Source: a virus. From it: a stretch of DNA of 64,000 bases. The notes below the pieces were generated by a model. That model was given only the letters and a program-made list of their open reading frames with translations, was not told where the DNA came from and did not search any database. Location: positions 102,717-166,716 of IMG/VR virus record IMGVR_UViG_3300035698_018106. One strand, 5' to 3'. Positions 3,713 to 63,353 of this stretch are shown piece after piece (position 1 is the stretch's first letter; every line of letters starts with the position of its first letter). Position numbers and translations under genes: made by a program.

Positions 3713-4510
3713 TTATTTTTTTGGATCGTCTTGTTTTTTATCAGAATTTTTAGATTCTAAAGGAGGTTTGCGCTTTTTCCATTCTTTTTTAAGTTCTCCT
3801 AAATATTTACAATTTTCATATTTTTCTTTATCTTTAAATGATTCTATCATTCGATCTATAACTTCATCGATATGTTTATTTTCTATAATTACAATGGTTT
3901 TAGTATCAGCAAAAATAACAAAAGGCTTATTTTCTTCAATTGGTTCCTTATCAAAATTTTCACGGACGTAATCATATATCTTCTGAGATAATTGTTCCCA
4001 ACCTCCATCTATATAAAAATTATCATTTTGTTCGGTTGGATTAAAACTTAATAAAACTCTCTTATCTTCAGTGTATCCCATAGTCGTTAAGAAAATCATA
4101 CTGGTAGGATTTATAGATTCAGATGCTTCAATATCCCGGGCATTTTCCTCAGCAATAATATGAGTTTTTTCATGGATAAATTCTCCCATTTGTTCTAACC
4201 ATTTAGGATAGGTTTTATATTGAATATCATCAGTTAGATTCCATGAAGGATCTATTTCAGAGTCATGTATTAATATTATATGTGAATAAACATCATAATC
4301 GACCATATCAGAACAAATTCTATTAAATTCAATATCGACTGGTTCTTCTATCTCACCCCATAAACACCAAGTATTAGGTACTTCTGGTAATCTAAACGAA
4401 GATACAAATTTATAATCTTTAAATGTCTTGGATAATTCATCGTCGGTATAAACTTTATCTTTAGGATACATCTCTTCCGCTATTCCATTACTATATATAA
4501 TTAGGCTCAC
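3713..4510 (-). CDS. hypothetical protein with a basic C-terminal tail
   Basis: 265-aa ORF abutting the upstream gene. No motif recognised. Confidence 0.45.
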   Translation of the reverse strand: MSLIIYSNGIAEEMYPKDKVYTDDELSKTFKDYKFVSSFRLPEVPNTWCLWGEIEEPVDIEFNRICSDMVDYDVYSHIILIHDSEIDPSWNLTDDIQYKTYPKWLEQMGEFIHEKTHIIAEENARDIEASESINPTSMIFLTTMGYTEDKRVLLSFNPTEQNDNFYIDGGWEQLSQKIYDYVRENFDKEPIEENKPFVIFADTKTIVIIENKHIDEVIDRMIESFKDKEKYENCKYLGELKKEWKKRKPPLESKNSDKKQDDPKK

Positions 4511-4575
4511 ATTAAAGTTTTTTATTTGAAAATATTTTATAATTATTATATGTATCTAAATCTAAAAAGTTTACT

Positions 4576-5619
4576 TTATTTGTTAAACCTTTTAAATGCT
4601 GCATTTGTGATATGTTCATAATCTACATATCCAATAAACTTATGAATTTTATCATATCCACAATAACTCATATTTGTCCGTAAATAATCTTCAAAATTCT
4701 CTATCCAAGATTCTAATGTATATTCTACTTTTTGTTTCTTTGTTATTCCTTCAGCTGTTTTAATTTTATCTTTACCCCATTTTCTTTGAACAGCTTTAGT
4801 ACTCATTCCTCTATATTCTTTTTTAATAGTAAATCCCTTTTTCCATAATCTATTCGCTAGTTTATATGGGATTTTAAAACCTAAAAAATAATTACTTCCA
4901 GAACTTTCGATAGCTTTATTAAAAATAGATCCTAACATTATATAATCAGCACCTAATCCTAATGCTTTTATGATATCATCATATCCTTGCATACCACCAT
5001 CAATAACTATTTTAGTATTCCAGAATCCTCCTTTTATCTTTTCTTCTCTACATTCTTTTATTAAAGATCCTATAGGATAATTAATTGCGGCATTTGCTGC
5101 AGTTGTACAAGCCCCACCAGTTCCTATAGAGCATCTTATATAATCTGCGCCGGCCATTGCTAAATTTTTATATGTTAAAGGGTGGGCAACATTACCAACC
5201 ATTAAAATGATAAAAGGGCGTAGTTTCTTAATAGCTTTTATAACATCTATTAATCTTTGCATATGACCATTAGCTATATCTATTAATATACGCGGGTAAT
5301 GTTGAATATATTTAGTATCATATATATCACCATTTGCTGCGCGCTCTAAATCTTTTTCTATTTCAACAAGTCCTAATGATTGAAAATATTTACCTTTATT
5401 TATAAGATGTTCATCTTCAAATCCTCTAGGTAAACAAGGCACTATTTTATTTTGTATATAATGTTCTAGATTTTTCTCTGAAATAACAGTATCCATTGGA
5501 GATGCCATTAATGGTAAAGTTCCATCTTGTTCTGTATCACATTCACTTCTACTATTAATTGGGCTAACAATAGCAGGAGTAATTACAATGTCTTTTAAAT
5601 CGAATTTAATATCTTTCAT
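4576..5619 (-). CDS. GMP reductase-like protein (IMPDH/GMPR TIM-barrel family)
   Basis: 347 aa, the same length as GuaC. Motifs: LPLMASPMDTV (compare IIAANMDTV), CSIGTGGACTTAANA (compare GIGPGSVCTT, catalytic Cys loop) and VIDGGMQGYDDIIKALGLGADYIMLGS (compare SDGG...GADFVMLGG). There is no CBS-domain insertion. Confidence 0.55.
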   Translation of the reverse strand: MKDIKFDLKDIVITPAIVSPINSRSECDTEQDGTLPLMASPMDTVISEKNLEHYIQNKIVPCLPRGFEDEHLINKGKYFQSLGLVEIEKDLERAANGDIYDTKYIQHYPRILIDIANGHMQRLIDVIKAIKKLRPFIILMVGNVAHPLTYKNLAMAGADYIRCSIGTGGACTTAANAAINYPIGSLIKECREEKIKGGFWNTKIVIDGGMQGYDDIIKALGLGADYIMLGSIFNKAIESSGSNYFLGFKIPYKLANRLWKKGFTIKKEYRGMSTKAVQRKWGKDKIKTAEGITKKQKVEYTLESWIENFEDYLRTNMSYCGYDKIHKFIGYVDYEHITNAAFKRFNK

Positions 5620-5649
5620 AATTTTTATATGATAAAATATTTAAAAAGT

Positions 5650-6447
5650 TTAGATTAATTTATCTTCTTCATCTTCTTCATCAAATTCATCATCTTCAGG
5701 GAATGTAATTTCTTCTTTTGGTGGAAGATTAATTTCATCATCGGGTAACATTGCTGGTTGTGGTCCTGAAATTGAAGGTCTAACTAATGGTTCATTTTGA
5801 GATGAAGGCTGTTCAGGAACTTTTGAATCTATTTTTGGTTCTAGAGGTTCTTCTATATCATCTGGTTCATTAGTAGTAACAATAATATCGTCCTTTTTGA
5901 CATTATCAACAGGAATACTTTTATCATGAATATCTAATGGTTTTTCTTCATCAGGTGATGATATATCTGTATCACTATAATCTGTTGGAATTTCTGGAAC
6001 ATCATCTGGAACAATAGATGGCTTAAATGTAGGTTCTGATTTAGGTACTACTGGTCTTTGTTCAACATCTTTTTCTTTTGGCATTAATTTGTCAGCAGGT
6101 TCTTCAGTTTTTGGAATTTTATCACTAATGGATATCTTAGGTTTTCCGGTTTCTTTATCTACATCTAATACAATTTCTTTACTTCTATTAGATACGCTTC
6201 TCCATTTATTTTTATCTAAATCATAAAATGCAGCCACTTTATCTGATGATGGATTTTCTCCTGTTGGCTGTTCGGCAGTTGGTACATATTTCATCATAGT
6301 TGTACCTTTTGCGGGTCTAACATCTCCATCAATTTTTATAAATTCGAAATTAAGAATCTTTTTATTAAGAACTTTTCTAAGTTCCTCAACAGAAACTGGT
6401 TCTCCAACTAAAAGTTTTTCATTAAGAGTAGACCTAACAATATGCAT
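5650..6447 (-). CDS. hypothetical protein with a conserved-looking N-terminal domain and a Pro/Asp/Glu-rich disordered C-terminal tail
   Basis: 265-aa ORF. The C-terminal 180 aa are low-complexity (P, E, D, K). The GGATATATAAAATAA motif lies 10 nt upstream. Confidence 0.5.
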   Translation of the reverse strand: MHIVRSTLNEKLLVGEPVSVEELRKVLNKKILNFEFIKIDGDVRPAKGTTMMKYVPTAEQPTGENPSSDKVAAFYDLDKNKWRSVSNRSKEIVLDVDKETGKPKISISDKIPKTEEPADKLMPKEKDVEQRPVVPKSEPTFKPSIVPDDVPEIPTDYSDTDISSPDEEKPLDIHDKSIPVDNVKKDDIIVTTNEPDDIEEPLEPKIDSKVPEQPSSQNEPLVRPSISGPQPAMLPDDEINLPPKEEITFPEDDEFDEEDEEDKLI

Positions 6448-6481
6448 ACAAAGTAGTTTATTTTATATATCCAATAAAAAA

Positions 6482-6506
6482 AGCTCTGAGTTATCAGAGC
6501 TTTTTT
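6482..6506 (-). terminator. rho-independent terminator downstream of the RNR gene
   Basis: Stem AGCTCTGA / TCAGAGCT with loop GTTA. Flanked by an A-run on one side and a T-run on the other, so it could act bidirectionally. Confidence 0.6.
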
Positions 6507-6526
6507 ATCCTATTTTTAATAATTTA

Positions 6527-9076
6527 TTAACCACACCTTGAAAAACTACAAGATGTACAATGAACACACCCTTCTTCTCTTATTAAATCAGCTTTACAAT
6601 CAGGACATTTCTCTTCTAATTTTACAGATTCTTCATATCTGCTCAAGTATCTCCTAACAACTGATGAAAAAGAAGTAATATTTTCATCTATTTTTTTAAT
6701 TACATTATTAACATGAGATATAGGGGCACCATGACGCAATAACATAGAGGCAGTTAACGTTAATATTTTAAACTCAATTCTATCTGCGGCTATTTGAAGT
6801 TCTTCTATTTCAAATTCACCATTAATAAACTTATAATGTCCTTTTTTAACTTTGATAATCTTACCTGTTGTGTTTTTAAGACTTGGAGGATTCTCAAACC
6901 CCATTATTTCATAAGGTCTATTAGTTCCAGGCCATTTACCTATAATAACAGCAAAATCTCTTCCATCTGCTTTAGCAGCATAATAATCTGCTTCTAATTC
7001 TTTAGGTCTTTTTGGTGCATTTGATTCTGGAAATTCTTCTATTTCATTTGTTTCTTCTTTTTTACTTAATATAACACCTGTTCTAGATCCTTCTCTATAA
7101 ATAGTGCAACCTTTGCATCCGGCTTTCCAAGCTTCAAAGTATATATCATTAACTTCTTTCTTAGTTGTTTGTGATGGTAAATTATGAGTTACTGAGATTG
7201 AATGGTCAATCCATTTCTGAATAACACCTTGCATTCTTACTTTTTCTAAATAATCAATTTCATGAGATTCAGATCCTGCCCAAGGAGATTCTTTTATAAT
7301 ATCATTTAAATTAGATTCAGATAAACCATTAAGATAAATATCAACATCAATTATTTCTTTTCCTTCTTTAGTAGTTTTATACCATTCTAAGAATGTAGTA
7401 TGTAAAACATTAAATTCTTCCCATGAATCACCATTTTCATCAACAAAATCAATTTTAACAGTAGGATCATTAGGATTAACTTTTTTCCTTCGTAATGATA
7501 TAATTTTAAATACAGGCTCTATACCTGAAGTGGTTTGAGATGCTATTGCTAATGTACCAGTTGGAGCAATAGATAATGAAGCGATATTTCTTCTACCATA
7601 TTTTATATAATCCTCATATTCTGCAGTACTAAAATTAGCAGAAATAATTCTATTAATGAATGGATTATTAGATTCTTTATCGTAATTCCATATAGGAAAT
7701 GCTCCTCTTTCTTTTGCTAATTGAACAGTTTCTTTATAACAACTAACAGCTAGATTTTTAAATATTTTATCGATGAATTTAGTAGATTCTTTAGATCCAT
7801 ATCGCATACCTAATTTAGCTAGCATATCACCTAGTCCTAATACACCAATACCGGTTCTTCTTCCATTTCTTAGCACAGTCAAAACATTATTCCATGTTTC
7901 CAACTCAACTCTTTTTAATAGTTTAGCTTCCGGATCTTTTTTAATTTTTGCTAAAATCTTCTCTATTTTTTCTTCTTCTAATGATACAATATCATCCATA
8001 GTACGTTGAGCAAATCTAGCAGTTTTTTCTAATTTAGCCCAATCTATTTTAGCATTTTTCTTAAATGGATTTTTAACATGATTTGATAAATTAAGTGATC
8101 CTAATCTACATGAATCGTAAGATGACAAAGGAACTTCGCCACATGGATTTGTTCCTTTAGTTTCGAATCCTAAATCTGCATAACAATCTGATGGAGATTC
8201 GGATATTATTGAATCCCAAAATAAAATGCCTGGTTCTGCATTTTTATGGGCCATTTCAATAGTTTTATCCCATAATTCTTTGGCTTTTATCCTTTTTATA
8301 TACATACCATTATCTAATTTATGAATAGCATCATATGGTGTTTGTATATCAATTTTAGGTTGTTTGTTTGTTGTTGGCCAATGTAGAATATAATCTTGAT
8401 CTTGTTCAACAGCTTTCATAAACTCATCAGTTACTTTAAGAGAAACATTAGCTCCAGTAACTTTAGATAAATCCGCCTTTTTAATAACAAATGTAGGGGA
8501 ATCTGGATGATTAACATGCATACTAATCATTAATGCTCCCCTCCTACCGTCTTGTGCAACTTCTCTAGTTGTGTTTGAATATCTATCCATAAATGAAGGA
8601 GCGCCGGTTGAAGATTGGGCTGAGTTATTAACATAACTGCCTATAGGTCGAAGATTTTCTATAGTAATACCAACACCTCCTCTTCTTTTCATTAATTGTG
8701 CAATTATTTCATCAATATTAATAATTGCGCCATAAGAATCAGAGTTATTATCTATAAAAAAACAATTTCCAAGAGATGACATTTGGTAATTATTTCCTAA
8801 CCCAAATAATATAGACCCTCCATAAATGAAATTTCCAAATCCTTTTAAATTATCATATATCTCTTCTTTATTAAGAGGGTGTGGATATTCTTGTTCTTTC
8901 CTAAAAATCTCATTTGTTATTCTATTAATAGTATTATCAGGCATTAATTCTATAAACTTTCCTTTTTCTTTAAGTGCATACTTATTAATCCAAACTTGTG
9001 TTGCTAAATTATCACCCTTAAAATAAGGTAAAGTAGCATCATTAAGTTGATCAATTGTATAGGTTTCATTAGTCAT
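6527..9076 (-). CDS. nrdJ: ribonucleotide reductase, class II (adenosylcobalamin-dependent, monomeric NrdJ-like) with a C-terminal Zn ribbon
   Basis: 849 aa. Active-site motif TNPCGEVPLSSYDSCRLGSLNL (the class II NPCGE...CxLGSxNL pattern). Glycine-rich GGVGI segment. C-terminal CPDCKADLIREEGCVHCTSCSFSRCG. Confidence 0.8.
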   Translation of the reverse strand: MTNETYTIDQLNDATLPYFKGDNLATQVWINKYALKEKGKFIELMPDNTINRITNEIFRKEQEYPHPLNKEEIYDNLKGFGNFIYGGSILFGLGNNYQMSSLGNCFFIDNNSDSYGAIINIDEIIAQLMKRRGGVGITIENLRPIGSYVNNSAQSSTGAPSFMDRYSNTTREVAQDGRRGALMISMHVNHPDSPTFVIKKADLSKVTGANVSLKVTDEFMKAVEQDQDYILHWPTTNKQPKIDIQTPYDAIHKLDNGMYIKRIKAKELWDKTIEMAHKNAEPGILFWDSIISESPSDCYADLGFETKGTNPCGEVPLSSYDSCRLGSLNLSNHVKNPFKKNAKIDWAKLEKTARFAQRTMDDIVSLEEEKIEKILAKIKKDPEAKLLKRVELETWNNVLTVLRNGRRTGIGVLGLGDMLAKLGMRYGSKESTKFIDKIFKNLAVSCYKETVQLAKERGAFPIWNYDKESNNPFINRIISANFSTAEYEDYIKYGRRNIASLSIAPTGTLAIASQTTSGIEPVFKIISLRRKKVNPNDPTVKIDFVDENGDSWEEFNVLHTTFLEWYKTTKEGKEIIDVDIYLNGLSESNLNDIIKESPWAGSESHEIDYLEKVRMQGVIQKWIDHSISVTHNLPSQTTKKEVNDIYFEAWKAGCKGCTIYREGSRTGVILSKKEETNEIEEFPESNAPKRPKELEADYYAAKADGRDFAVIIGKWPGTNRPYEIMGFENPPSLKNTTGKIIKVKKGHYKFINGEFEIEELQIAADRIEFKILTLTASMLLRHGAPISHVNNVIKKIDENITSFSSVVRRYLSRYEESVKLEEKCPDCKADLIREEGCVHCTSCSFSRCG

Positions 9077-9118
9077 ATTAACATATTTATTTTAATTCAT
9101 TATTTTTAAGCTGTATTA

Positions 9119-10555
9119 TTAAATAGTAGCTTTTAATCTTCGTTCTTTAATTTTTTGCAATTCATCCATCTCAATATCTGCTCTTTGAGATGTCTTTTTA
9201 GCCACTTTTCGTTGAGCATAAAAGTTAGCTAATATTTCTGGTATTAATGGTTCAAATGACGCGTCAAAAACAGCTCCAGATGAACATTTTATTTGATTAT
9301 CATTAGTTTTATAAAGTTTATCTTTGGTTATAAAATTCTCTATAGATATCATAAATTGTCTCATGATAGAAGGATAAAGAGATGCAAAGTCAAAAGAAGC
9401 TACCCAACCATATAAACCAGGTACAGGCTCAAATACAAAAGCTCCTTCGAATTGTTCTCTTTGTTTCTTATCCCATATTTTCGGAAATACTTGTTTCCTT
9501 TTATATGCATATCTAGATAAAGTGGCTTCCAACATTTGTATAGGAGAAAATGCATTCATAGCTTCAACCTGAGTAATATTTCCAAGTCCTAAGAAGGTAC
9601 TCATGGTTTTCAACTTTTCGTCCATTAATTCAACAAGAACAGAATCAATAGCATTATAGAAAACATATAATTCATAATCTTTATTAAACAATTCTTGAAA
9701 TGTTCCACCATATTTAACTTTTCTAATTCCGGTAGCTGCTTCAGCCACAAAATCTAATGTATTATTTTCCTTTACATCAATTGTTCTATCCCATTTCATA
9801 TAAATGGACATATAATCAACAATTAATTTATGTTGAGGAAGCATGATAGTCTTTGTTTTACCTCTGTCTTTTATTCTGTGTTCATACCATTGTCCGGTGG
9901 GTGACATCCAAGATATATCCATTCCTAATCTTTTTGTACATCTATTATAAATATACAACCAATCATATCCCCAAAAATTCCACCCTGTTATAAGAGGTGC
10001 TGTTCTAGCATAATTATATAACCAATCATATAACATATCAGCTTCATTATCATATTGTTTATAAACAAATTTATATTGTCTATCGTATTTGTCAATATGT
10101 TTATTAATGCTTTTTTCTATTCTATCGCATTCTTCACCCGATAAAGGTTTTAAACCAAATACTATGATATCCGGATATCTAACCCATGATATTGAATTAA
10201 TTCTATTTTTTGCCTCATCAGCTCCTGGAAATCCTTCATCAGTAACATCTACTTCAATATCACAAGCATATAATTTAGGGAGATTACGTTCGAATAAATG
10301 TTTTGTGTTAGCTTCGCCTGCATCCATAAAAAATTCTTGAATTCTGTGTTTATCAAGAAATTGTGATGGTCTTTTTGAAACTGGTTTATTGTCCCATGAT
10401 TTAATACCAGGAACAGCTTTACTTTGTTGATTAGTATATGAATAAGAATATTGGTGGTTTGAGGGTATAGCTAATTGAGAAAAAGCTACTTCACCTTCTT
10501 TATTAATGTATGAGACGACCATACGTCCTTGTCTTTGTTCTATATTTATTACCAT
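9119..10555 (-). CDS. DNA polymerase, family B, T4 gp43-like: N-terminal fragment (3'-5' exonuclease domain through polymerase motif A) only
   Basis: 478 aa, collinear with T4 gp43 residues ~100-470. Matches: LYACDIEV (Exo I; T4 VANCDIEV), ITGWNFWGYDWLYIYNR (T4 FTGWNIEGFDVPYIMNR), FYNAIDSVLV (Exo II; T4 YNIIDVESV), FEGAFVFEP (T4 FPGAFVFEP) and SFDFASLYPSIMRQ (motif A; T4 SFDLTSLYPSIIRQ). The ORF stops before the KxxxNSxYG and YGDTDS motifs. The RNR start codon lies 42 nt downstream. Confidence 0.8.
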   Translation of the reverse strand: MVINIEQRQGRMVVSYINKEGEVAFSQLAIPSNHQYSYSYTNQQSKAVPGIKSWDNKPVSKRPSQFLDKHRIQEFFMDAGEANTKHLFERNLPKLYACDIEVDVTDEGFPGADEAKNRINSISWVRYPDIIVFGLKPLSGEECDRIEKSINKHIDKYDRQYKFVYKQYDNEADMLYDWLYNYARTAPLITGWNFWGYDWLYIYNRCTKRLGMDISWMSPTGQWYEHRIKDRGKTKTIMLPQHKLIVDYMSIYMKWDRTIDVKENNTLDFVAEAATGIRKVKYGGTFQELFNKDYELYVFYNAIDSVLVELMDEKLKTMSTFLGLGNITQVEAMNAFSPIQMLEATLSRYAYKRKQVFPKIWDKKQREQFEGAFVFEPVPGLYGWVASFDFASLYPSIMRQFMISIENFITKDKLYKTNDNQIKCSSGAVFDASFEPLIPEILANFYAQRKVAKKTSQRADIEMDELQKIKERRLKATI

Positions 10556-12080: not shown

Positions 12081-13040
12081 TTATTTATCATGTTTTAAAT
12101 AAGGAGTAATAGAATTGGAAATTAAACGAGTTTTATATGATTCAGTTACATTTTCTTTAGAAGTTAAAGTGGCTCTAGGAAGTTGTTTTCCTTCAGCATA
12201 TATAGTTAATATCTGATCTCCTTTAGAATATTTTCTTATAGTATTGTCTGGATTTTTACCATATTTTTCCCAACCACTTTTTTCTATTTTTTCTAATACA
12301 TTTGGAATAGTATCTGTTATAAATACTCTATCAATTCCTGATTTTCCTGGTTTAAATTCATATGATATACCTAAACCATCTAGGGCATCTTTAGCTTTTA
12401 CATCTTTTAATGCTATATCATCTCTTAAAGACGTTTCATTAACTGTATCAGATTTCTTCTTTTTTATTGAAGTTAATGGGTGATCAGGTACGTGTTTAGA
12501 TGCCTTTTGGTAATCATCTAGAGTTTCTATATTAAATGATTCATTTTTATTTTTGAAATCTTGTAATATCGTATTTGTTTTAGAATCCTTTTTCTTGAAT
12601 GGAGGTTTTACACCCATTTTTTTAGCCATCATATTTCCGATTTTATCATATGGATTTATATTATTTTCGTTAGTTTGTGTTCCTATAGAAGCATCACTCC
12701 AACTATCTCCTGAACCAGAAGGTCCATCTGTATTTAATCCAGCTGATGCAGCAGGTACTGCACTTCCCATTCCTGGTGTATTAACAGTAGTTGCCATTGG
12801 AGCAGATACGCCACCAACATCTTCATTCACAGTCCCCATCAATTCATCATCAGATAAATTTATTAATAATCCATCCCATTTTTTTATAGCCATTTCTTTT
12901 GTTTTAGAAGGAGGCCCTTCTGCATGACATATTGAACATGTTATTGCATAACTAGCTTTTTCACCACTTGGCATTTCAGCATCTTTTCCTAGAGAAAATA
13001 CCCAAGTTTCATTTGAATTACAAAAAGGACATTGTTTCAT
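12081..13040 (-). CDS. Lar-like (restriction-alleviation family) Zn-ribbon domain protein with a disordered linker and a C-terminal domain of unknown function
   Basis: 319 aa. N-terminal MKQCPFCNS...CSICHAEGP...EMAIKKWDGL matches the CPFCG...C..C...GP....A...WN pattern of the Lar family. The Gly/Ser/Thr-rich segment is low-complexity. Confidence 0.5.
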   Translation of the reverse strand: MKQCPFCNSNETWVFSLGKDAEMPSGEKASYAITCSICHAEGPPSKTKEMAIKKWDGLLINLSDDELMGTVNEDVGGVSAPMATTVNTPGMGSAVPAASAGLNTDGPSGSGDSWSDASIGTQTNENNINPYDKIGNMMAKKMGVKPPFKKKDSKTNTILQDFKNKNESFNIETLDDYQKASKHVPDHPLTSIKKKKSDTVNETSLRDDIALKDVKAKDALDGLGISYEFKPGKSGIDRVFITDTIPNVLEKIEKSGWEKYGKNPDNTIRKYSKGDQILTIYAEGKQLPRATLTSKENVTESYKTRLISNSITPYLKHDK

Positions 13041-13665: not shown

Positions 13666-15201
13666 TTATGCGAAAGGATTCACGCCTTTTTTGCCTGGTT
13701 CTGGTTTTGAATCTTTATCATCAGAATCTTTATCCTCATCGTCATCATCAGAATCTTTATCGTCATCATCAGAATCTTTATCGTCATCATCAGAATCTAT
13801 ACCAGGTTCGTTTGATTCTTCGCCAGTATCTTCTAAACCAGCAAAATCAATTGTATCTTCTACTCCTTCAGCGCCTTCTACTTCAATTTCTCCACCAAAC
13901 ATGTCTTCAATATCAACACCTTTACCTTCTAACCAACTTTTAAGTACTTCCCAATTTTCAGCATTAACTTTTATTTGTTTACCATCTGCGATTGGCTCTT
14001 CATCATCTATTGCAATATCTTCTCCTTCTCCTTCTCCTTTAGCAGGAACTTCATCTATAACTTCTTCTTCACCTGGTATTTCAGTAGATACTTCTTCATC
14101 ATCTTCCCCAAATGTTTCTAAATCACCCATACTAAATTCATCATCTTCATCATCTTCAGTAAGATTAGGTATCATAGCTTTTTCTTCTTTTTCCATACCT
14201 GTAACAGATTCTTCAATTTCTGGAAGGTCACTTGTTTCGCTAGCATCTTCAGTTTCGCCATCAATGCCCCCATCAAGATTTAAATCAAAATCATCTATAT
14301 CATCTCCACCTTCTTCTCCATCAATAGGTGCTAAAACATCAAGTCCTCCACCTTCTTCGCCATCAATAGGTGCTAAATCATCTGATTGATCTATTACTTC
14401 TTCAGCTTCAACACCTAATTCAGTTAATTCACTTATAGCTTCCTCTATATCATCAACAGTTATAATAAATTCGGTTATCTCCACTCTATCATCCGAATCT
14501 GCATCCGTATCTAGATCAGTATCTAGATCTTTATCATCATCGTCATCAGAATCTTTATCATCGTCATCAGAATCTTTATCATCGTCGTCAGAATCTTTAT
14601 CATCGTCATCAGTATCTACATCAGTATCTACATCAGTATCTACATCAGTATCTACATCAGTATCTACATCAGAATCTTTATCATCGTCATCTTTATCTTC
14701 TTCATTTAGCTTAGTTAAACGTTTAGCTTTTATTTGTTCAACTAAAGCTCTGATACGAGCTTCTCTTTGCTCTTCTTCATTAAGTTGACTTTCTGATTTT
14801 TCCTTTTTTTGTATTACGGATTTAACTTCTTTTTCTTCATGAAGTTTTCCTTCTTCAATTCTAGCAGTTCTTTCTAATAATCGTTGTCCTAATTTAGATA
14901 ATTTATAAGACACTAAACCATTTTTATTTTCAACCATAAAGAAATTAGCATTTCTTTTTAGCCACATGTTAGCTGCAGCATTAGGATTTTTAGAAGTTTC
15001 ATTTAAACCAGCTATAAATCTCTTAAGACTACCTCTTGTAACTTTTTTACTTTCAGATACAAAGTTTAAAACTTGATCTCTTAAAGGAGCTCTAGATCCA
15101 ACAACTACAGGTTGTTTATTCCCATATTTTCTTGTTAAAGTAATAGCTTTATTCTCGTTAAGATACTGACCTAAACTTGTCTGTACATACATTTTTTTCA
15201 T
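13666..15201 (-). CDS. hyper-acidic tandem-repeat protein. It has an N-terminal basic domain followed by ~370 aa of D/E-rich repeats (DTDV x5, DDDDKDS x7).
   Basis: 511 aa. The N-terminal ~140 aa are basic (K/R-rich). The remainder is dominated by Asp/Glu, with repeat blocks at both ends encoded by exact DNA tandem repeats. Confidence 0.6.
   Translation of the reverse strand: MKKMYVQTSLGQYLNENKAITLTRKYGNKQPVVVGSRAPLRDQVLNFVSESKKVTRGSLKRFIAGLNETSKNPNAAANMWLKRNANFFMVENKNGLVSYKLSKLGQRLLERTARIEEGKLHEEKEVKSVIQKKEKSESQLNEEEQREARIRALVEQIKAKRLTKLNEEDKDDDDKDSDVDTDVDTDVDTDVDTDVDTDDDDKDSDDDDKDSDDDDKDSDDDDDKDLDTDLDTDADSDDRVEITEFIITVDDIEEAISELTELGVEAEEVIDQSDDLAPIDGEEGGGLDVLAPIDGEEGGDDIDDFDLNLDGGIDGETEDASETSDLPEIEESVTGMEKEEKAMIPNLTEDDEDDEFSMGDLETFGEDDEEVSTEIPGEEEVIDEVPAKGEGEGEDIAIDDEEPIADGKQIKVNAENWEVLKSWLEGKGVDIEDMFGGEIEVEGAEGVEDTIDFAGLEDTGEESNEPGIDSDDDDKDSDDDDKDSDDDDEDKDSDDKDSKPEPGKKGVNPFA
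13739..13801. repeat. 21-bp tandem repeat x3 (unit cgtcatcatcagaatctttat) inside the acidic-protein CDS
   Basis: Direct reading. Encodes DKDSDDD repeats. Confidence 0.8.
14531..14607. repeat. 21-bp tandem repeat x~3.5 (unit catcgtcatcagaatctttat). A second array of the same family lies in the same CDS.
   Basis: Direct reading. Confidence 0.8.
14611..14670. repeat. 12-bp perfect tandem repeat x5 (agtatctacatc) encoding (DTDV)5
   Basis: Direct reading. Confidence 0.9.
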
Positions 15202-16350: not shown

Positions 16351-18186
16351 TTATGATATTATTTTTCGTTCAGTTTCTGGTAAATTACTAGGTTCAAATT
16401 GAGTAATTATAGAACCTTCCCATGTTCTATATTCATTTATAATACTATCATAAAAATTATGAATTGCTTTCGGCGTTATTTCCATAAATAATGAACCATT
16501 TCCATCTTCAATTGCTCTATATGCTGGTAATTTATCTTTATTATCCATAGCGCCAATATTAAATTCAGATAAAACATTAAGTTTACCTCCCATAATTTCT
16601 TCTTCAAAAAATAATTGCAAAGACATATCCGATTCTTTACCCTTATCTGTAAAGAATATTAATGGTTCGTAATGTGGTCTAACAAATTCAAATATTTCTT
16701 TAAGACTCCATGATTCTAACATCATAAAAGAAGGAATAAGCGATTTATTAAAGTTAGATAAAGATCTCATTTGAGCTTTTATTGCTTCATTACTTAAATG
16801 AAAATCTGATCCTTTGAGATCTTTTTCTCCACTAACTGCAGCTATTATAACTGGAACATTCCATTGATTATGTATTTGTTCTATATTTGTCATTTGAGCA
16901 CTAGTGAATGGTGTAAATTCAGTAAGATATATAGCTACTCTATCTTCACCTTGAGGTACTTCTCTAGGATTTGGTACAAAAGCATTTTGAATAGAAGAAA
17001 TAACTCTCATATTATCGATATCATTAGGTTGACGTCTTTTAAGAGTTTTAACTGTAATATTATCAGATCTTCTTTCATTTATAGATTCATTTATAAAATC
17101 TATTGAATTACGCTCTTCATTTGTTAAATCAGATATTCTATCTACAAAATTATTAAATTTAGTAACTATAGATTCTGATAATAATCCATATGGTTTTTTA
17201 TATTTTCTAAATGATGAAAGTATTACTCTATATAATGCTTCATAAATAGGATCTTCATTAATTAAATTAAGTGCTTTTTCATTTTTAATGAATTTTTTAT
17301 TTAATTTGCCAATATTATTATATTGAGGTGAAGTTAAATATTTTGGTTCTAATCCTTCTGCTATTTGTTCTGTTTTACAGTATTCTACAAATATATCACT
17401 AACTATTTCAATATACATTTCTGAAAGAGTTTCGGATTGTATATTCGGGAAAGAATAATCATTGACAAATTCAGTTAAACTTAATAATACGATATCATAA
17501 AAATCTCTAGAAGAATGTTGTTTTTGATAAGCTTCATTTAATAGTTTGAATTCATAAGAAAGTACTTGTAATAAAGATTTTTTAGATTTAATAACTATAC
17601 CTTCTATAATATCTTCTCCTGAATATGATAATCCGAAAGTTTTAGAAACTAATTCACTTAATGTATCATATTTACAATCATCATAACTTTGAGTATCATA
17701 ATCAATTAAACATTGTTTTTGTTCTTCATTTAATTTCCCTTCAAATAAAACTGGTGGTCTACCCATGCAAAGTATTCCAGCCCATTCATTTATTTCATTA
17801 TAATTATAAGATTCTATTATCTTTCCATTTTCTCTTTTAGTAATATCTGTTAACACATATTTGGGTAAGTTTGTATATGGTATTCTATGAGGTCGTTCAA
17901 TAGGAGTATATGCAATTCCAAATCTTATACCTTCTGGAATAAATGTATCATCTATTATAATAGGTATTTCTATTAAGGCGGATTCCCATATATCATTTAA
18001 TGTTCTTTCAACTAATGTTATTTCAGAATTATCTTTTTTAAAGAAAATAATTTCTCCATCTACTTTTTCAAAGAGGATTCTAAATGTATCTAGTTTTTCG
18101 GATATAACTATCTCATCATTTAGTACTTTGTCAACGTAGTTTCGTCCTTTTTTTTCTAAGACCTGACTAATCGTATTTAATCCCAT
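16351..18186 (-). CDS. Rnl1-like RNA ligase nucleotidyltransferase domain (N-terminal) followed by additional domains, including a degenerate cytidylyltransferase-like segment
   Basis: 611 aa. ILFEKVDGEI is a motif I (KxDG) candidate at ~residue 41. EDIIEGIVIKSKKS at ~195 matches Rnl1 motifs IV and V (T4 Rnl1 [20 protein letters not shown]). The C-terminal RVAIYLTEFTPFTSAQM...NVPVIIAAVSGEKD aligns with the N-terminus of the 621-aa paralogue (IIIMIPGGFKPTTGAHL...NVKEVKVIVGPKERD). Confidence 0.45.
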   Translation of the reverse strand: MGLNTISQVLEKKGRNYVDKVLNDEIVISEKLDTFRILFEKVDGEIIFFKKDNSEITLVERTLNDIWESALIEIPIIIDDTFIPEGIRFGIAYTPIERPHRIPYTNLPKYVLTDITKRENGKIIESYNYNEINEWAGILCMGRPPVLFEGKLNEEQKQCLIDYDTQSYDDCKYDTLSELVSKTFGLSYSGEDIIEGIVIKSKKSLLQVLSYEFKLLNEAYQKQHSSRDFYDIVLLSLTEFVNDYSFPNIQSETLSEMYIEIVSDIFVEYCKTEQIAEGLEPKYLTSPQYNNIGKLNKKFIKNEKALNLINEDPIYEALYRVILSSFRKYKKPYGLLSESIVTKFNNFVDRISDLTNEERNSIDFINESINERRSDNITVKTLKRRQPNDIDNMRVISSIQNAFVPNPREVPQGEDRVAIYLTEFTPFTSAQMTNIEQIHNQWNVPVIIAAVSGEKDLKGSDFHLSNEAIKAQMRSLSNFNKSLIPSFMMLESWSLKEIFEFVRPHYEPLIFFTDKGKESDMSLQLFFEEEIMGGKLNVLSEFNIGAMDNKDKLPAYRAIEDGNGSLFMEITPKAIHNFYDSIINEYRTWEGSIITQFEPSNLPETERKIIS

Positions 18187-25045: not shown

Positions 25046-25504
25046 TTAGTATAAAACTAAAGTATTTGGGTCATTATGGTCATATTCAGGATCAATTACG
25101 AATCCTTGTTTTATAAAAGCTTCTTCAGCATCATTTGTGAATGGGTGAAGTATAATAGGCAATTGATATTTTGTTTTTAGAAAGTTAAATACCTGTTTAC
25201 TTATGCTAAATCCTCTAAATTTATATCCAATATAGATCCAGTTTATAATAATATCTTTTGTTCTTATTTTATAATCTATAACACCACATACTATATCATT
25301 ATTATAAATTACAAAAATATTAGTTCCTTTGACAGAATCTAATATCATTTCATCTGTTTCATTGGTATAATCAAATTCTGAATCTATAAATTTTTCTGAA
25401 TCCTTAAAATTTTTAACTAACTTGATATTATTTATTAATTTCGCTCTCATTTTATTCCCATCCTTTTTGAACATCTGGAGAGAAGTTCGCATACGAAAAT
25501 TCAT
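25046..25504 (-). CDS. hypothetical protein (possible GNAT-like fold). The true start is probably an internal Met (ATG at 25450-25448), which avoids the overlap with the upstream gene.
   Basis: 152-aa ORF. IGYKFRGFSISKQVF weakly resembles GNAT motif A. The 5' 53 nt overlap the upstream CDS in another frame. Confidence 0.35.
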   Translation of the reverse strand: MNFRMRTSLQMFKKDGNKMRAKLINNIKLVKNFKDSEKFIDSEFDYTNETDEMILDSVKGTNIFVIYNNDIVCGVIDYKIRTKDIIINWIYIGYKFRGFSISKQVFNFLKTKYQLPIILHPFTNDAEEAFIKQGFVIDPEYDHNDPNTLVLY

Positions 25505-27317
25505 CTCTAGATACTAACTTAACTACATTACCATTTAAATCACTACATGCAAAACCCTCTTGATTAGTTTTCTTTAAATCTCCAGATTTCATCTTAAGAT
25601 AAGTTTGGAATTTACCAATATTATTAAGTTTACTTATAAAGATTTCTTTTAGATTTGAAATTTCAGATATCATATGTATAATATATATCCATTCTTTATT
25701 TGATTGCTCTATAGCGTCAATCATCTCGGCAAATCTAACTATAACTTTATTTTGTCCTTTTTCAGTTTTAAGTTTACCTGCTTCCATTAACGATCTATTT
25801 TGAAGGAATTCTATAAATTCTGCAAGAACACCTTCTATCGAATTAAATGAATTAATTTTTACATTAGCTTTAATTAAAGAGTTCTGATAAATGTTAAATA
25901 ATTTTATAAGCTTTGTTGATTTGATTATATCATGATAATTAGTAGATATTTTAAGTGTTTTACCTATTACATTTAGATCAGTTAAAATAATTTCTATTTC
26001 TTTAGATTCTTCTTCTGTAAAGTTTATAACCCCTGCAAATGACTCAATATAAGGGTCTGTCATTAACATATTATCAATACTTGTTAATTCGGAAGATTTA
26101 GCATCATAACTAGCGCTAACATTTTCTAAATCTTTTCCTGTATATCTAGTATGCCATGTAATACCTATATCTGCTTTATTTATAAGATTTCCTAAATCTG
26201 ATTTTTTAGGTATAACATAATAAATAGTGTTTGGATGAAATGCCCAATAAGGTTCTCCTTCTATTTCGGCATCTTGTAATGACATATCATCAAATAAGAA
26301 ATCACCTTGCCAAATTTCTCCTTTTGGAAGATTAATTTTATCTATGTATTTTAGAAATGTTTTTAATTTATAAACTAATTGAGGTCTTTCTCCTAATTCA
26401 GATTCTATTTCAGCAATTGTTGAAAATACTTTTGGAGATTTTGAAAAAAGTCCTTTCATTGCAATACCATTATCTGGTAATCCTGGAAATTTAGACCATG
26501 CAAATATAGCAGGGGCTCCATCTATCTTTACAGAAAGACTCATATCTTCTTTTTTAGTTGAACCCTTTAGATCATTATATAAATTATTAAACATTTTTAG
26601 AACCCAATCAATTCCCTCTACTCCACCAAGTAATACTAAATCCTCAGCATGTGTCATATGCTTATTTACTTTTGATACTATAGTAGATTCATCTAATTTA
26701 TTAGACCCACCTAAATATTTCCATATATTTTCTATTTGATTTACTGAATTTTCAGGATATCCTGAAGCAAAACCTTTAAAATCGTCATTTTTGATATCTT
26801 CTCTTAATATAGATGCAGAAATTAATTCACCTTGATGTGGTCCATTTTTAAATTTCATAGGATCTACATCAATTACTAATTCAACTATTTCAACATCTTT
26901 AGGTACTCCATCAAAATATTTTCCTCCAGGTTGATTTTGTGTAGTAAAATCAACTACTCTTTTATAATCATCGCCTTTTGTACTAGCTCCTAACGCATAA
27001 CGACCTGGAGGTAAATCTTCAACTGCTTTATATGCAGTCAAAATAGGTGATGGATATTTTGATTTTTCTATAGATACATTAGAGATATGATTAGTAAGTT
27101 CTTTAGCAATCTTTACTCCTAAATCTTGACTTATTCCATCTCGTTCTTTAGGACCAACTATTACTTTAACTTCTTTTACATTTGGATGTTGAGCATATCT
27201 ATAAATTAAATCCAGATGAGCTCCTGTTGTTGGTTTAAACCCGCCCGGAATCATAATTATGATATCTGGTGGGTTTTTTGTTTTATCCCATTCTTTAATT
27301 GTCAGAAATCTTTTCAT
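25452..27317 (-). CDS. Two-domain protein: an N-terminal cytidylyltransferase-fold nucleotidyltransferase domain (NMNAT-like GxFxPxTxGH) and an Rnl1-like RNA ligase domain
   Basis: 621 aa. IIIMIPGGFKPTTGAHLDLIYRYA matches the (H/T)xGH nucleotidyltransferase signature. LSVKIDGAPAIFAW at ~residue 262 resembles ligase motif I (T4 Rnl1 ILTKEDGSLVSTY). AEIEGEPYWAF...YYVIPKKSDLG resembles Rnl1 motifs IV and V (EGYVAV...KIKSDWY). Confidence 0.45.
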   Translation of the reverse strand: MKRFLTIKEWDKTKNPPDIIIMIPGGFKPTTGAHLDLIYRYAQHPNVKEVKVIVGPKERDGISQDLGVKIAKELTNHISNVSIEKSKYPSPILTAYKAVEDLPPGRYALGASTKGDDYKRVVDFTTQNQPGGKYFDGVPKDVEIVELVIDVDPMKFKNGPHQGELISASILREDIKNDDFKGFASGYPENSVNQIENIWKYLGGSNKLDESTIVSKVNKHMTHAEDLVLLGGVEGIDWVLKMFNNLYNDLKGSTKKEDMSLSVKIDGAPAIFAWSKFPGLPDNGIAMKGLFSKSPKVFSTIAEIESELGERPQLVYKLKTFLKYIDKINLPKGEIWQGDFLFDDMSLQDAEIEGEPYWAFHPNTIYYVIPKKSDLGNLINKADIGITWHTRYTGKDLENVSASYDAKSSELTSIDNMLMTDPYIESFAGVINFTEEESKEIEIILTDLNVIGKTLKISTNYHDIIKSTKLIKLFNIYQNSLIKANVKINSFNSIEGVLAEFIEFLQNRSLMEAGKLKTEKGQNKVIVRFAEMIDAIEQSNKEWIYIIHMISEISNLKEIFISKLNNIGKFQTYLKMKSGDLKKTNQEGFACSDLNGNVVKLVSRDEFSYANFSPDVQKGWE

Positions 27318-28166: not shown

Positions 28167-28628
28167 TTAAATTTTTAATAGATTTTTTTTATAGATTTTT
28201 ATAATTCGCTCACATTTTTGTTTCCAATTAGGACTACCAAAAGAACTTATAGCTTTTGTTGGTGAACAATTTTTTAAAATCATTTTATTTTCTGTCCAAT
28301 CATCATCAATATGCCAAACGAAATTGTTTTCTTTTAGATAAGGCCATTTATTATCCATATTTGTAAAGTGCACTTTTTCTAATGGAAGTCCTATATCTTT
28401 AATAAGATCAAATAATTCAAAGTTAGTCTCATCAACATGATGTGTGGTATGATATTCAGCTTTATAAAGAGCATCATCACCAAATCTAGTTGTAGTAATC
28501 CATACATCATACCCTTTAATTATTAATTCCCTAGCATATTCTTTTATTGAAGGGAGTTCAATAGTGCCATCAAAATCAAATGATAAGCTAATATTTTTAT
28601 TTTCATTCATAGCGTTAAATATAACCAA
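28167..28628 (-). CDS. HAD-superfamily hydrolase (phosphatase)
   Basis: 153 aa. N-terminal SFDFDGTIE (DxDGT, the same motif as the T4 Pnkp phosphatase domain, DVDGT). Later HIDDD motif. Confidence 0.55.
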   Translation of the reverse strand: MVIFNAMNENKNISLSFDFDGTIELPSIKEYARELIIKGYDVWITTTRFGDDALYKAEYHTTHHVDETNFELFDLIKDIGLPLEKVHFTNMDNKWPYLKENNFVWHIDDDWTENKMILKNCSPTKAISSFGSPNWKQKCERIIKIYKKNLLKI

Positions 28629-45854: not shown

Positions 45855-46499
45855 TTATGATATTGTATAATTTCCTTGAGATTCTTTCACAATCCAAGAA
45901 GGACCATATGATGCATCATATGCTATTATTATTAATTTCACCCATCCACCTGCTACAACCTCAGAATGTGTCATTGTAAGTATATCATCACCTCCGTCAA
46001 ATGATCTAGTTAATACTGTAAAATCATCAATACTAGTTATACCAGGATTAAACATTATTCTTACTTCCTGACCTAAATTACCATTTTGTAATCCATAATC
46101 TAAATCATTACCTATTTTAATATAAGGCGTATCGATATCTATAAATGAATATCCAGACTTTTCATATGGCCAAATTGGATTAGTAGATGTGTCAGATGTT
46201 GCAATTCGTGTTGATGTATCTCCTTCATTATAAGTATTGACAAAATCCATATCAATAGTTGTAGTGTTTTCATACCAATTAGTAAATTGTTGTTTAACTG
46301 TTAAATTATCTGTAATTACATTAACAAATTCTCCTGTTGATCCTTTAATTCTACCAGATGTAACTACTGGTTTAATAAGAATTCCGGAAGATTCATCATA
46401 GAAAACATCAAGCGATCTTTCTACATTAGTAAAATTATCATTCCAAATTTTTGGAATAAGAGTTATTAAAGTTTTTAATGATAGACGAGTCCAGTCCAT
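45855..46499 (-). CDS. virion structural protein (first gene of the leftward structural operon)
   Basis: 214 aa. The GGATATATAAAATAAAA motif lies 9 nt upstream. Confidence 0.45.
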   Translation of the reverse strand: MDWTRLSLKTLITLIPKIWNDNFTNVERSLDVFYDESSGILIKPVVTSGRIKGSTGEFVNVITDNLTVKQQFTNWYENTTTIDMDFVNTYNEGDTSTRIATSDTSTNPIWPYEKSGYSFIDIDTPYIKIGNDLDYGLQNGNLGQEVRIMFNPGITSIDDFTVLTRSFDGGDDILTMTHSEVVAGGWVKLIIIAYDASYGPSWIVKESQGNYTIS

Positions 46500-62753: not shown

Positions 62754-63353
62754 TTATTCATTCACTGGGATAACATGCTCTTTTCTGATTTGTTCTCCTT
62801 CTTCATCATGAAAAGAGTATACTCCTTTTCTAAAAGTTAATTCAAACGGTTCTTCTAATTTTTTGGCATATTTTTTACCTTCTCCTGGATTAACATATGC
62901 TAACGTCATATGTGGGTGATAATCTGGATAAGTTTGAGTGTTACTAAAATTATTTTCAAATTTATCTCTATATTGTTGAAGCTGATCACTAACAGGTACA
63001 TCATATTTAACAACATCATATTCTTCACCTTCAAAATATGAAATTTCATCTACTGTTACAGTAAGTGCTTCAATATCATTTTGTATAAGGTCCATTATTA
63101 TTTCCGGATCAATTTCATCCTCATGAATTCCGTATAATACAGTTACATGGGGATTATCTTCTAAACCGTATGAATCATCATATGGCTTTGTATATACATC
63201 TTTGGGGTCAATACCATCAGTATGTTTTTCCTTCCAATCAGAAATATCATTGGCATCTAACATAACACAACCATATGTCTTTTGTTCTTTATTTTTCTTA
63301 GGTTTTTCTTGATTGGTACTATCCCACTCATTTATTGATATAAATTTCTTCAT
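62754..63353 (-). CDS. 2H phosphoesterase (LigT / cyclic phosphodiesterase superfamily)
   Basis: 199 aa. Two H-x-T-x motifs about 75 aa apart: NPHVTVLYG and HPHMTLAYV. Confidence 0.55.
   Translation of the reverse strand: MKKFISINEWDSTNQEKPKKNKEQKTYGCVMLDANDISDWKEKHTDGIDPKDVYTKPYDDSYGLEDNPHVTVLYGIHEDEIDPEIIMDLIQNDIEALTVTVDEISYFEGEEYDVVKYDVPVSDQLQQYRDKFENNFSNTQTYPDYHPHMTLAYVNPGEGKKYAKKLEEPFELTFRKGVYSFHDEEGEQIRKEHVIPVNE

Follow-up and report, generated by a model that had tools for sequence, protein, structure and literature searches.

Background

Phage RNA ligases are the classic answer to host defences that cut tRNA, and they also serve as routine laboratory tools. Two described enzymes bear on the protein considered here: T4 Rnl2 (gp24.1; family PF09414), in which a nucleotidyltransferase domain is followed by a helical domain, and T4 Rnl1, which has a covalent nucleotidyltransferase fold and a C-terminal tRNA-binding domain. 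In Rnl2, residues R55, K225 and K227 have been implicated in adenylylation of the enzyme, and the conservative mutants R55K, K225R and K227Q retain step 3, so that pre-adenylylated ends are still sealed (PMC3149579). In its passages on such enzymes, a jumbo-phage review (PMC7824862) reports Rnl1, Rnl2, RtcB and Rnl2-HNH fusions, and fusions of HIGH-class nucleotidyltransferases to Nudix or kinase domains only. In this study we examined protein 1, the 611-amino-acid (aa) product of positions 16351-18186 in a 64,000-nucleotide (nt) stretch of viral DNA (IMG/VR record IMGVR_UViG_3300035698_018106, positions 102,717 to 166,716; "the window" below is this whole stretch), and compared it with protein 2, the 621-aa product of 25452-27317 in the same window.

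An earlier note on this DNA had taken protein 1 for an Rnl1-like RNA ligase and for a paralogue of protein 2 with its domains in swapped order. We find that protein 1 belongs, as a divergent member, to a large superfamily that is uncharacterised and restricted to phages. The reading that we regard as probable is that of an RNA-end-joining or repair-type protein with a remodelled ligase site and an inactive Rossmann domain, whose fusion arose independently of that in protein 2.

A conserved gene with an Rnl2-like ligase fold

The interval 16351-18186 coincides exactly with one open reading frame (ORF) on the minus strand, and all of the peptides quoted in the earlier note are present in its translation: FEKVDGE (residues 39-45), EGIVIKSKKS (195-204), VAIYLTEFTPFTSAQM (417-432) and NVPVIIAAVSG (443-453). 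A word-indexed search returned 241 matches to protein 1; the 120 listed are almost all full length, at 50-69% identity, and none of those 120 carries a Pfam annotation. An exhaustive profile search extended the relatives to 508 representative clusters at 50% identity (expectation value, E, of 1e-3 or less), which is a lower bound on the size of the family. In the collection of deposited and cultured phages, protein 1 matched only six uncultured metagenomic phage records of 462-735 kb, and a near-identity DNA search of cultured phages gave no match. The gene is real, conserved and constrained.

An AlphaFold2 model of protein 1, made with 38 homologues as input, has a mean predicted local distance difference test score (pLDDT) of 80.5 and divides into four parts: an alpha/beta domain, a helical domain, a disordered linker and a Rossmann domain (Table 1). 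Foldseek searches of the PDB placed the N-terminal part closest to T4 Rnl2 (2hvr and 2hvq, E 4e-7), followed by Rnl3 (8uch, E 8e-7). T4 Rnl1 has the covalent nucleotidyltransferase fold in common with protein 1 (2c5u, E 2.2e-5) but ranked 12th, behind Rnl2 and Rnl3, and we saw no evidence in protein 1 for the C-terminal tRNA-binding domain of Rnl1. Other matches were the Naegleria ligase (6vt3, E 2.6e-5), REL1 (1xdn, E 2.1e-4) and Rnl5 ligases. The ligase domain, modelled at a pLDDT of 80-90, was assigned a Foldseek probability of 1.00 against 2hvr, 2hvq, 1s68, 8uch, 2vug, 5cot and 1xdn. The likeness to Rnl2 continues into the helical domain: the two proteins have the same order of nucleotidyltransferase and helical domains, the Foldseek alignments to full-length Rnl2 cover 346-380 columns, and relatives of about 400 aa consist of the ligase and helical domains only. 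Protein 1 differs from Rnl2 in carrying an additional C-terminal Rossmann domain of about 190 residues, for which Foldseek found PPAT (4nah_B, E 1.1e-4), NadD (5das, E 4.8e-4) and NMNAT (4yp6, template modelling (TM) score 0.66), with TM scores of 0.60-0.66 on the target across these enzymes. Together, the model and the Foldseek matches bear out the layout proposed earlier, with a ligase-type domain at the N-terminus and a nucleotidyltransferase-like domain at the C-terminus.

The linker varies among homologues. In P0073, P0082 and P0090 it holds a cysteine-rich insertion of 40-50 residues (about columns 400-450 of family alignment A1) with a zinc-ribbon-like C..C....C..C pattern; protein 1 itself lacks this insertion.

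The Rnl1 label was not supported. No Rnl1-family Pfam match was found for protein 1 at E up to 1, or for nine relatives at E up to 0.01. The weak Pfam match that does exist is to PF09414, the Rnl2 type, its threshold is reached by relatives, and Foldseek ranks Rnl2 above Rnl1. Two distant relatives, P0277 and P0271, score 31.0 and 27.0 bits on PF09414; since they reach the threshold and protein 1 does not, protein 1 belongs to PF09414 by transitive homology only.

Motifs of the ligase domain

FEKVDGE had been proposed as a KxDG motif I. Among the close homologues in which we counted conservation (120-121 sequences), however, K41 is kept in 90/121, D43 in only 25/121 and G44 in 40/121, so we reject this assignment; a K.DG pattern is expected by chance about 0.1 times in a protein of this composition. 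From conservation and alignment, the true motif I is the near-invariant EKLDTFR, with K31 (118/120) as the candidate nucleophile and both D33 and R36 present in 120/120. E30-K31 aligns to E34-K35 of T4 Rnl2 and ends a model strand at residues 25-31. The motif differs from the KIHGTN of Rnl2, and it has an arginine at the +5 position (KxDxxR) as in DNA ligases.

The second peptide, EGIVIKSKKS, had been read as motifs IV and V together. The first half of that reading is sound: EGIVIK is motif IV, with E195 and G196 each found in 121/121 close homologues and K200 in 115/121. KSKKS is not motif V, as K202 and K203 are variable. The motif V-equivalent strand lies just downstream and has Q207 (119/121) and an I, V or L at the L209 position where Rnl2 has K225 and K227, in a register that was set from the pattern (F213 = F231), not from a scored alignment, and is provisional. 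In relatives this strand usually reads LAKxVDPxF, with one lysine; the residue is K in 78/139 aligned sequences and Q in 23/139.

A superfamily profile matched T4 Rnl2 with an E of 2.6e-4 over 139 columns, and the resulting residue map pairs K31 with K35, I91 with E99, T113 with F119 and D114 with D120. Protein 1 and Rnl2 have the motif I lysine, this aspartate and the EG of motif IV in common. The motif III glutamate is replaced by I91 (L, V or I in the clade) and the motif IIIa aromatic residue by T113 (120/120). Protein 1 differs from Rnl2 in having no counterparts of E99, F119, K225 and K227. Within the clade of protein 1 the ligase domain strictly conserves K31, D33, R36, R61, D114 and E195-G196. 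K31, D33, R36, E195, G196 and Q207 are 98-100% conserved, against a mean column identity of 59%, which speaks for a site that has been remodelled and still functions, and against drift.

A degenerate nucleotidyltransferase domain

The state of the C-terminal domain was read from a full-length homologue in LR756500, an uncultured phage record (BLASTP E 2e-43), which carries GRFQPFTLGH and ISASVVRTAIKDD. TEFTPFTSAQ of protein 1 aligns exactly to the first and LPAYRAIED to the second, of which only R557 survives. The suggestion in the earlier note that TSAQ is a degenerate HxGH equivalent is therefore upheld by its alignment to TLGH in a full-length relative. Both the TxGH and the ISxSxxR motifs, which activate the NTP, are lost, and the C-terminal domain is therefore very probably inactive as a nucleotidyltransferase, in agreement with the earlier suspicion that one copy may have an inactive domain. 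Constraint has nevertheless been kept: Q431, N434, R557 and E560 are each invariant in 121/121 close homologues, and T428 is found in 117/121. From these alignments, the domain is constrained, yet very probably not a working nucleotidyltransferase.

All nine relatives tested pass PF01467, at 23-36 bits (P0277 33.5 bits), the LR756500 homologue passes it at 31.8 bits, and the relatives' domain also passes TIGR00125; their scores are far below every NMNAT or PPAT equivalog cut-off. The closest solved sequence to the intact domain is the archaeal (M. jannaschii) NMNAT 1f9a, with GRFQPFHxGH. As in PPAT (CoaD) and archaeal NMNAT, to whose fold the C-terminal domain of protein 1 corresponds, intact relatives carry GRFQPFH(N/K)GH or GRFQPFTxGH together with ISxSxxR. 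Protein 1 differs from these enzymes in its T-S-A-Q signature, in having LPAYR as its second motif and in its fusion to a ligase-fold domain.

A phage-restricted superfamily

We surveyed the superfamily with a representative set of 92 full-length sequences (90 cluster representatives, protein 1 and the LR756500 homologue) and 141 aligned sequences in all. GH is retained in 49 of the 92 full-length sequences. The contrast between the LR756500 homologue (ENLDGS with TLGH) and protein 1 (EKLDTFR with TSAQ) gave rise to the idea of reciprocal decay, in which an intact TxGH would go with loss of the motif I lysine and vice versa. This idea was rejected, because GH is intact in 12/21 sequences without the lysine and in 37/71 with it. 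We also rejected DUF6267 as the identity of the C-terminal extension of the long members (about 1000-1288 aa), where neither a DUF6267 hidden Markov model (HMM) nor Pfam finds anything. Within its own superfamily the architecture of protein 1 is widespread, and it is old: distant homologues in huge phages have it in common at about 26% identity, and it therefore predates this lineage.

Relation to protein 2

Protein 2 consists of an intact PPAT-like TxGH nucleotidyltransferase (residues 1-212, with T31-G-A-H34 and ISASILR) and a DUF6267 ligase-fold domain (residues 218-613, with K264-x-D-G, E587-G588 and K600). Both proteins are made of a ligase-type covalent nucleotidyltransferase fold and a PPAT/NMNAT-type (HIGH/TxGH) fold in opposite order, so the swapped domain order of the earlier note is correct at the level of folds. 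The last 53 nt of the protein 2 gene (25452-25504) are shared with the beginning of the ORF listed after it (25046-25504, 152 aa, no family match), whose true start may be further downstream.

The further claim that the C-terminal segment of protein 1 aligns with the N-terminus of protein 2 holds only through intermediates. In direct comparison, the best BLASTP match between the two proteins has an E of 1, hhalign of the two family alignments (A1 against A2) gives a probability of 0.2%, and five pairings of their domains give P of at least 0.29 in all cases. With a broad superfamily profile of the C-terminal domain, hhalign links it to the N-terminal domain of protein 2 with a probability of 87.3% (E 3.8e-6), and to the cytidyltransferase of Prochlorococcus phage P-HM1 better still (95%, 150 columns). 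Conversely, an HMM of the protein 2 N-terminal domain matches seven intact members of the protein 1 superfamily at both motif regions, and an extended motif, ISxSxxR......D(F/Y)..F, is common to protein 2, the LR756500 homologue and the P-HM1 cytidyltransferase. On the strength of these profiles and motifs, the Rossmann domains of proteins 1 and 2 are homologous and belong to one phage-associated TxGH subfamily. The earlier note had named an absence of pairwise or profile similarity as refuting its view; such an absence is what direct comparison gave, and only the Rossmann domains, by way of intermediates, depart from it.

The ligase-fold domains show no sequence or profile similarity in hhalign or HMM searches, and the fold is all that they are seen to share. 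Their topologies also differ: DUF6267 has a helical insert of about 140 residues between motifs IIIa and IV, whereas protein 1 is compact and Rnl2-like, with its helical domain following. A 421-aa ligase-like ORF of LR756500 gives weak profile matches to both families (E 0.0036 to the ligase domain of protein 1, E 0.016 to DUF6267) and, from these matches, may be intermediate between them. This ORF (6698-7963, plus strand), which has no Pfam family, lies directly upstream of the protein 1 homologue at 7995-9956 and contains HLNHPFED, SEKLDGYA (a KxDG motif) and a C-terminal EGIVF...YKLTG.

Synteny separates the two halves of protein 2. On contig L010 the gene order is amidase, a 212-aa gene, DUF6267, gp32, primase, UvsW and a protein 1 homologue. 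There the 212-aa gene, 50% identical to the N-terminal domain of protein 2 (E 7e-63), and the 418-aa DUF6267 gene stand apart. Protein 2 joins into one gene what L010 and cyanomyophages encode as two neighbouring genes. Because these genes are split in relatives, independent fusions fit better than duplication plus rearrangement: protein 1 appears to be neither a recent paralogue nor a shuffled copy of protein 2, each being a separate union of a ligase-fold domain with the same phage type of TxGH transferase. Tight operon linkage of proteins 1 and 2 was also considered and rejected; with DUF6267 near the protein 1 homologue at 4 or more of 30 loci, the two belong to a common genome and module, not to an operon.

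Ligase-fold and TxGH pairs in other phages

A ligase-fold protein paired with a phage-type TxGH transferase, as in protein 1, is also seen with DUF6267 (PF19782) and the cyanophage "cytitidyltransferase". The pairing takes the form of adjacent genes (P-HM1 and others), a split pair (L010) or a fusion (protein 2). The DUF6267 family differs from the ligase domain of protein 1 in having no detectable sequence relation to it and in keeping KxDG, EG and the motif V lysine. In T4-like cyanophages the "cytitidyltransferase" gene (GC 190) comes after the one for DUF6267 (T4-like GC 71).

In P-HM1 (3980-7073) the DUF6267 gene overlaps that of the 188-aa "cytitidyltransferase", which has the motifs GRFQPPTTGH and ISGTKMR, by 10 nt; a 435-aa "possible cytitidyltransferase" with no Pfam match comes after it, and the cluster lies downstream of gp41 and mazG. 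In Pelagibacter phage HTVC008M (3986-8179) the order is DUF6267 (410 aa), a 170-aa ORF, a P-loop kinase (Zeta_toxin/AAA_33, 220 aa), which thus stands between DUF6267 and the TxGH protein, and a 596-aa protein that begins with a TxGH transferase domain and ends with DUF5824; the annotation of each of the four genes is "hypothetical". The larger DUF6267 neighbours (596 aa in HTVC008M, 435 aa and 485 aa in P-HM1) were tried as relatives of protein 1 and rejected, the sole match (probability 79%) being confined to the TxGH domain at the N-terminus of the 596-aa protein. We also rejected DUF6267 as an exclusive replacement for the supposedly missing gp30 DNA ligase of cyanomyophages: Stenotrophomonas phage DLP6 has both DUF6267 and gp30 ligase, so extra ligase-fold proteins coexist with replicative ligases (PMC5349666).

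We found no curated family or paper that describes an Rnl2-like/TxGH-transferase fusion, and literature searches on DUF6267 and on fusions of ligases with cytidylyltransferases or NMNAT brought up nothing relevant. The recurrent pairing of ligase-fold proteins and TxGH transferases in phages thus appears to be undescribed, and it is the part of this work that most deserves experimental follow-up. What emerges is a large family, of at least 508 clusters at 50% identity, in which an Rnl2-like protein is fused to an NMNAT-like transferase. An association of this kind recurs independently in the DUF6267 fusions and in the gene pairs of T4-like cyanophages and pelagiphages. It also offers a testable handle on DUF6267 and the neighbouring "cytitidyltransferase", conserved cyanophage genes that are annotated as hypothetical or by a generic family name.

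Proposed function and alternatives

The ancestral architecture of the superfamily would run from an Rnl2-type RNA-ligase nucleotidyltransferase domain through a helical domain to an NMNAT/PPAT-like TxGH nucleotidyltransferase. In protein 1 the ligase and helical domains would bind broken RNA (or RNA:DNA) ends, and K31 may still accept a nucleotide. Because the counterparts of motifs III and V are lost, weak self-adenylylation is predicted, and protein 1 would be a polynucleotide end-joining or repair protein that is poor at ATP-dependent self-adenylylation and possibly seals activated ends; the dead Rossmann domain may have been retained as a ligand- or partner-binding module. We infer this end-joining or repair function from the sequence and the predicted structure. 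The independent fusion of ligase-fold domains with the same TxGH type points to functional coupling of the two activities, and the window encodes a 2H phosphoesterase (62754-63353), which lends it an RNA-repair flavour and is compatible with a capacity for RNA end healing; the P-loop kinase of the HTVC008M cluster adds to that flavour. The natural loss of the motif V lysines with the nucleophile kept parallels engineered adenylylation-defective ligases and could be of practical interest.

A number of observations weigh against a ligase-type function for protein 1. Its PF09414 score is only 18.1 bits (E 0.003, residues 98-205), below the gathering threshold of 27 bits; PF01467, NCBIfam and PHROG gave no match to it, and a profile of the close family matched no PDB sequence at an E of 10 or less. 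The loss of the motif III glutamate and of the motif V lysine counterparts, the latter in the provisional register given above, may mean that the ligase domain is dead. Across the superfamily the motif I lysine, the motif IV EG, the motif V lysine and TxGH have been lost in every combination: all 16 combinations of the four motif states occur among the 92 full-length sequences, and all four motifs are kept in just 16 of them. The motif I lysine is 82% conserved among the 141 aligned sequences, below E30, R61, G150, Y258 and N345. Such a mosaic of catalytic losses is no less compatible with a binding role than with catalysis. The gene, moreover, sits in a DNA-replication module (gp32, primase, UvsW), not adjoining known RNA-repair genes, and DUF6267 lies within 10 kb of the protein 1 homologue in 4/30 IMG/VR loci, a lower bound since many loci do not have the full 10 kb upstream.

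The main rival to the end-joining reading is that protein 1 is a full pseudoenzyme in which neither domain is catalytic, serving as an RNA- or nucleotide-binding scaffold, a regulator or a decoy, with its dead Rossmann domain possibly docking onto protein 2 (enzymes of the PPAT and NMNAT kinds form oligomers). We hold this possible though doubtful. It would account for the missing counterparts of Rnl2 E99, F119, K225 and K227, for the missing TxGH and ISxSxxR, and for the mosaic losses across the superfamily, in which the motif I lysine is changed to N or Q in 26/141 aligned sequences and the most conserved positions (G150, P572, Y258, R61, E30 and N345) do not include the nucleophile. However, the ex-catalytic residues of pseudoenzymes usually drift, whereas in this clade the six ligase residues listed above are nearly invariant, and the K-to-Q change in motif V goes along with the arginine at +5 of motif I, which looks more like remodelling than decay. 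Gene position alone suggests a weaker rival, a role in DNA replication: in phages of this lineage protein 1 could, for example, seal or process RNA-DNA junctions or lagging-strand nicks instead of repairing RNA. The order gp32, primase, UvsW, protein 1 is conserved on homologue contigs of 73-405 kb, ribonucleotide reductase (RNR), dUTPase and DNA polymerase B are encoded nearby, and the 64 kb window showed no canonical DNA ligase. Yet the structural neighbours of protein 1 are RNA ligases, with DNA ligases ranking far lower in Foldseek, its model has no oligonucleotide-binding (OB) domain, and the window is 64 kb of a genome that probably exceeds 300 kb, so that a canonical ligase may lie elsewhere; as noted above, DLP6 has DUF6267 alongside its gp30 ligase (PMC5349666). 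We think this role improbable.

Paralogy of the kind proposed in the earlier note would have proteins 1 and 2 descend from one RNA-repair module duplicated within this genome lineage, their domain order being rearranged and one nucleotidyltransferase lost afterwards. The same two folds in opposite order are what it predicts, the Rossmann domains are linked by profile (probability 87%) and by the phage-specific ISAS..R......D(F/Y)..F motif style, and both genes belong to one replication module and co-occur on contigs. This does not outweigh the ligase domains, which are PF09414-like in one protein and DUF6267 in the other, have no pairwise or profile similarity and differ by the DUF6267 insert; nor the finding that protein 2 corresponds to two separate genes in close relatives, or the age of the protein 1 architecture. 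We therefore consider paralogy by duplication and rearrangement very unlikely. A further reading, which we also put well below even chances and regard as unlikely, treats the pairing as a two-activity module in a pathway that is proposed here and undescribed: the TxGH enzyme would transfer AMP to the 5'-phosphate of a polynucleotide and the ligase fold would only seal. In formal terms, ligase step 2 and NMNAT share one chemistry. The module would have been assembled in at least three ways (Rnl2-like-to-nucleotidyltransferase fusion, nucleotidyltransferase-to-DUF6267 fusion, and the adjacent genes of cyanomyophages and L010) and be conserved in marine and huge T4-like phages, with protein 1 as a natural step-3-only sealing enzyme, like the engineered Rnl2 K227Q, supplied by the intact transferase of protein 2. 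If true, it would account for the many members that can do without the lysine nucleophile and the motif V lysines.

Table 1. Coordinates in the window of the protein 1 gene, its domains and motifs, and the protein 2 gene
Feature	Coordinates	Strand	Basis or content
Protein 1, whole gene, 611 aa, single ORF	16351..18186	-	Rnl2-like ligase-fold, helical and degenerate TxGH nucleotidyltransferase-like domains
Residues 1-225, ligase-type covalent nucleotidyltransferase domain (Rnl2/PF09414-like)	17512..18186	-	Foldseek, weak Pfam match, superfamily profile
Motif I, E30-K31-L-D33-T-F-R36, candidate AMP-accepting lysine K31	18079..18099	-	Conservation and Rnl2 alignment
KVDG of the earlier note, residues 41-44, non-conserved hairpin turn between strands 35-42 and 45-49	18055..18066	-	Conservation and model
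Motif IV, I-E195-G196-I-V-I-K200	17587..17607	-	Conservation; resembles EGYVLK pattern of T4 Rnl2
Motif V-equivalent strand L205-F213 (LLQVLSYEF)	17548..17574	-	Q207 and L209 at Rnl2 K225 and K227 positions (provisional register)
Residues 226-355, alpha-helical domain, in the place of the Rnl2 C-terminal domain	17122..17511	-	Model helices 228-355
Residues 358-386, low-confidence, indel-rich linker	17029..17115	-	pLDDT below 50; insertions of variable length, some cysteine-rich
Residues 410-595, Rossmann (HUP/HIGH-class) nucleotidyltransferase-like domain, very probably catalytically degenerate	16402..16959	-	Foldseek, Pfam matches of relatives, profile
P426-F-T428-S-A-Q431-M-T-N434, degenerate (T/H)xGH motif	16885..16911	-	Aligned to GRFQPFTLGH of the LR756500 homologue
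L553-P-A-Y-R557-A-I-E560-D561, degenerate ISxSxxR motif	16504..16530	-	Aligned to ISASVVRTAIKDD of the LR756500 homologue
Protein 2, 621 aa, comparison protein	25452..27317	-	Residues 1-212 TxGH transferase, 218-613 DUF6267

Genomic context and other features of the window

The window has a G+C content of about 27%, and its genes run in one direction, on the minus strand, as far as about 46 kb. Among its products are gp32, a T4-type primase, UvsW, RNR, dUTPase, a fragment of a family B DNA polymerase and tail-fibre-like proteins, from which gene content we conclude that it is part of a T4-like phage; this phage is uncultured and giant. No tRNA genes were found in the window.

The 2H phosphoesterase mentioned above (minus strand, 199 aa) is LigT-like and matches PF13563 (2_5_RNA_ligase2) at 49.6 bits (E 5.9e-13), with a weak sub-threshold match to Acb1 (22.8 bits). 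From these matches it may heal RNA ends as a 2',3'-cyclic phosphodiesterase or be an anti-defence enzyme that degrades cyclic nucleotides. Beyond the amidase gene, as seen from protein 2, a 153-aa ORF (28167-28628, minus strand) starts with ...SLSFDFDGTIE..., which contains a DxDGT motif I like that of haloacid dehalogenase (HAD) phosphatases, and has TTTR and DDD further on. It has only weak PHROG matches (phrog_1238, E 1.5e-4) and none in Pfam or NCBIfam; judged by its motifs, the product may be a small HAD phosphatase.

The interval 13666-15201 (minus strand) encodes an extremely acidic, repetitive protein of 511 aa with (DT/DV)n and DSDDDDK repeats and no family match, and a long antisense ORF that overlaps this gene is an artefact. 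The 478-aa ORF at 9119-10555 (minus strand) covers, of a family B DNA polymerase, only the exonuclease domain and the beginning of the polymerase domain, which suggests that the polymerase gene is split. Further minus-strand genes encode a protein whose N-terminus weakly resembles Lar restriction alleviation (12081-13040; 27.7 bits, just below the cut-off of 28.6), a WYL_2-domain protein (5650-6447) and a GMP reductase/IMPDH-like protein (4576-5619, E 1.9e-35). The coding strand switches at about 46500, between the divergent genes 45855-46499 (minus strand) and 46642-47850 (plus strand), where GC and AT skew change sign; the product of the first plus-strand gene has 402 aa and contains an S1 RNA-binding domain.

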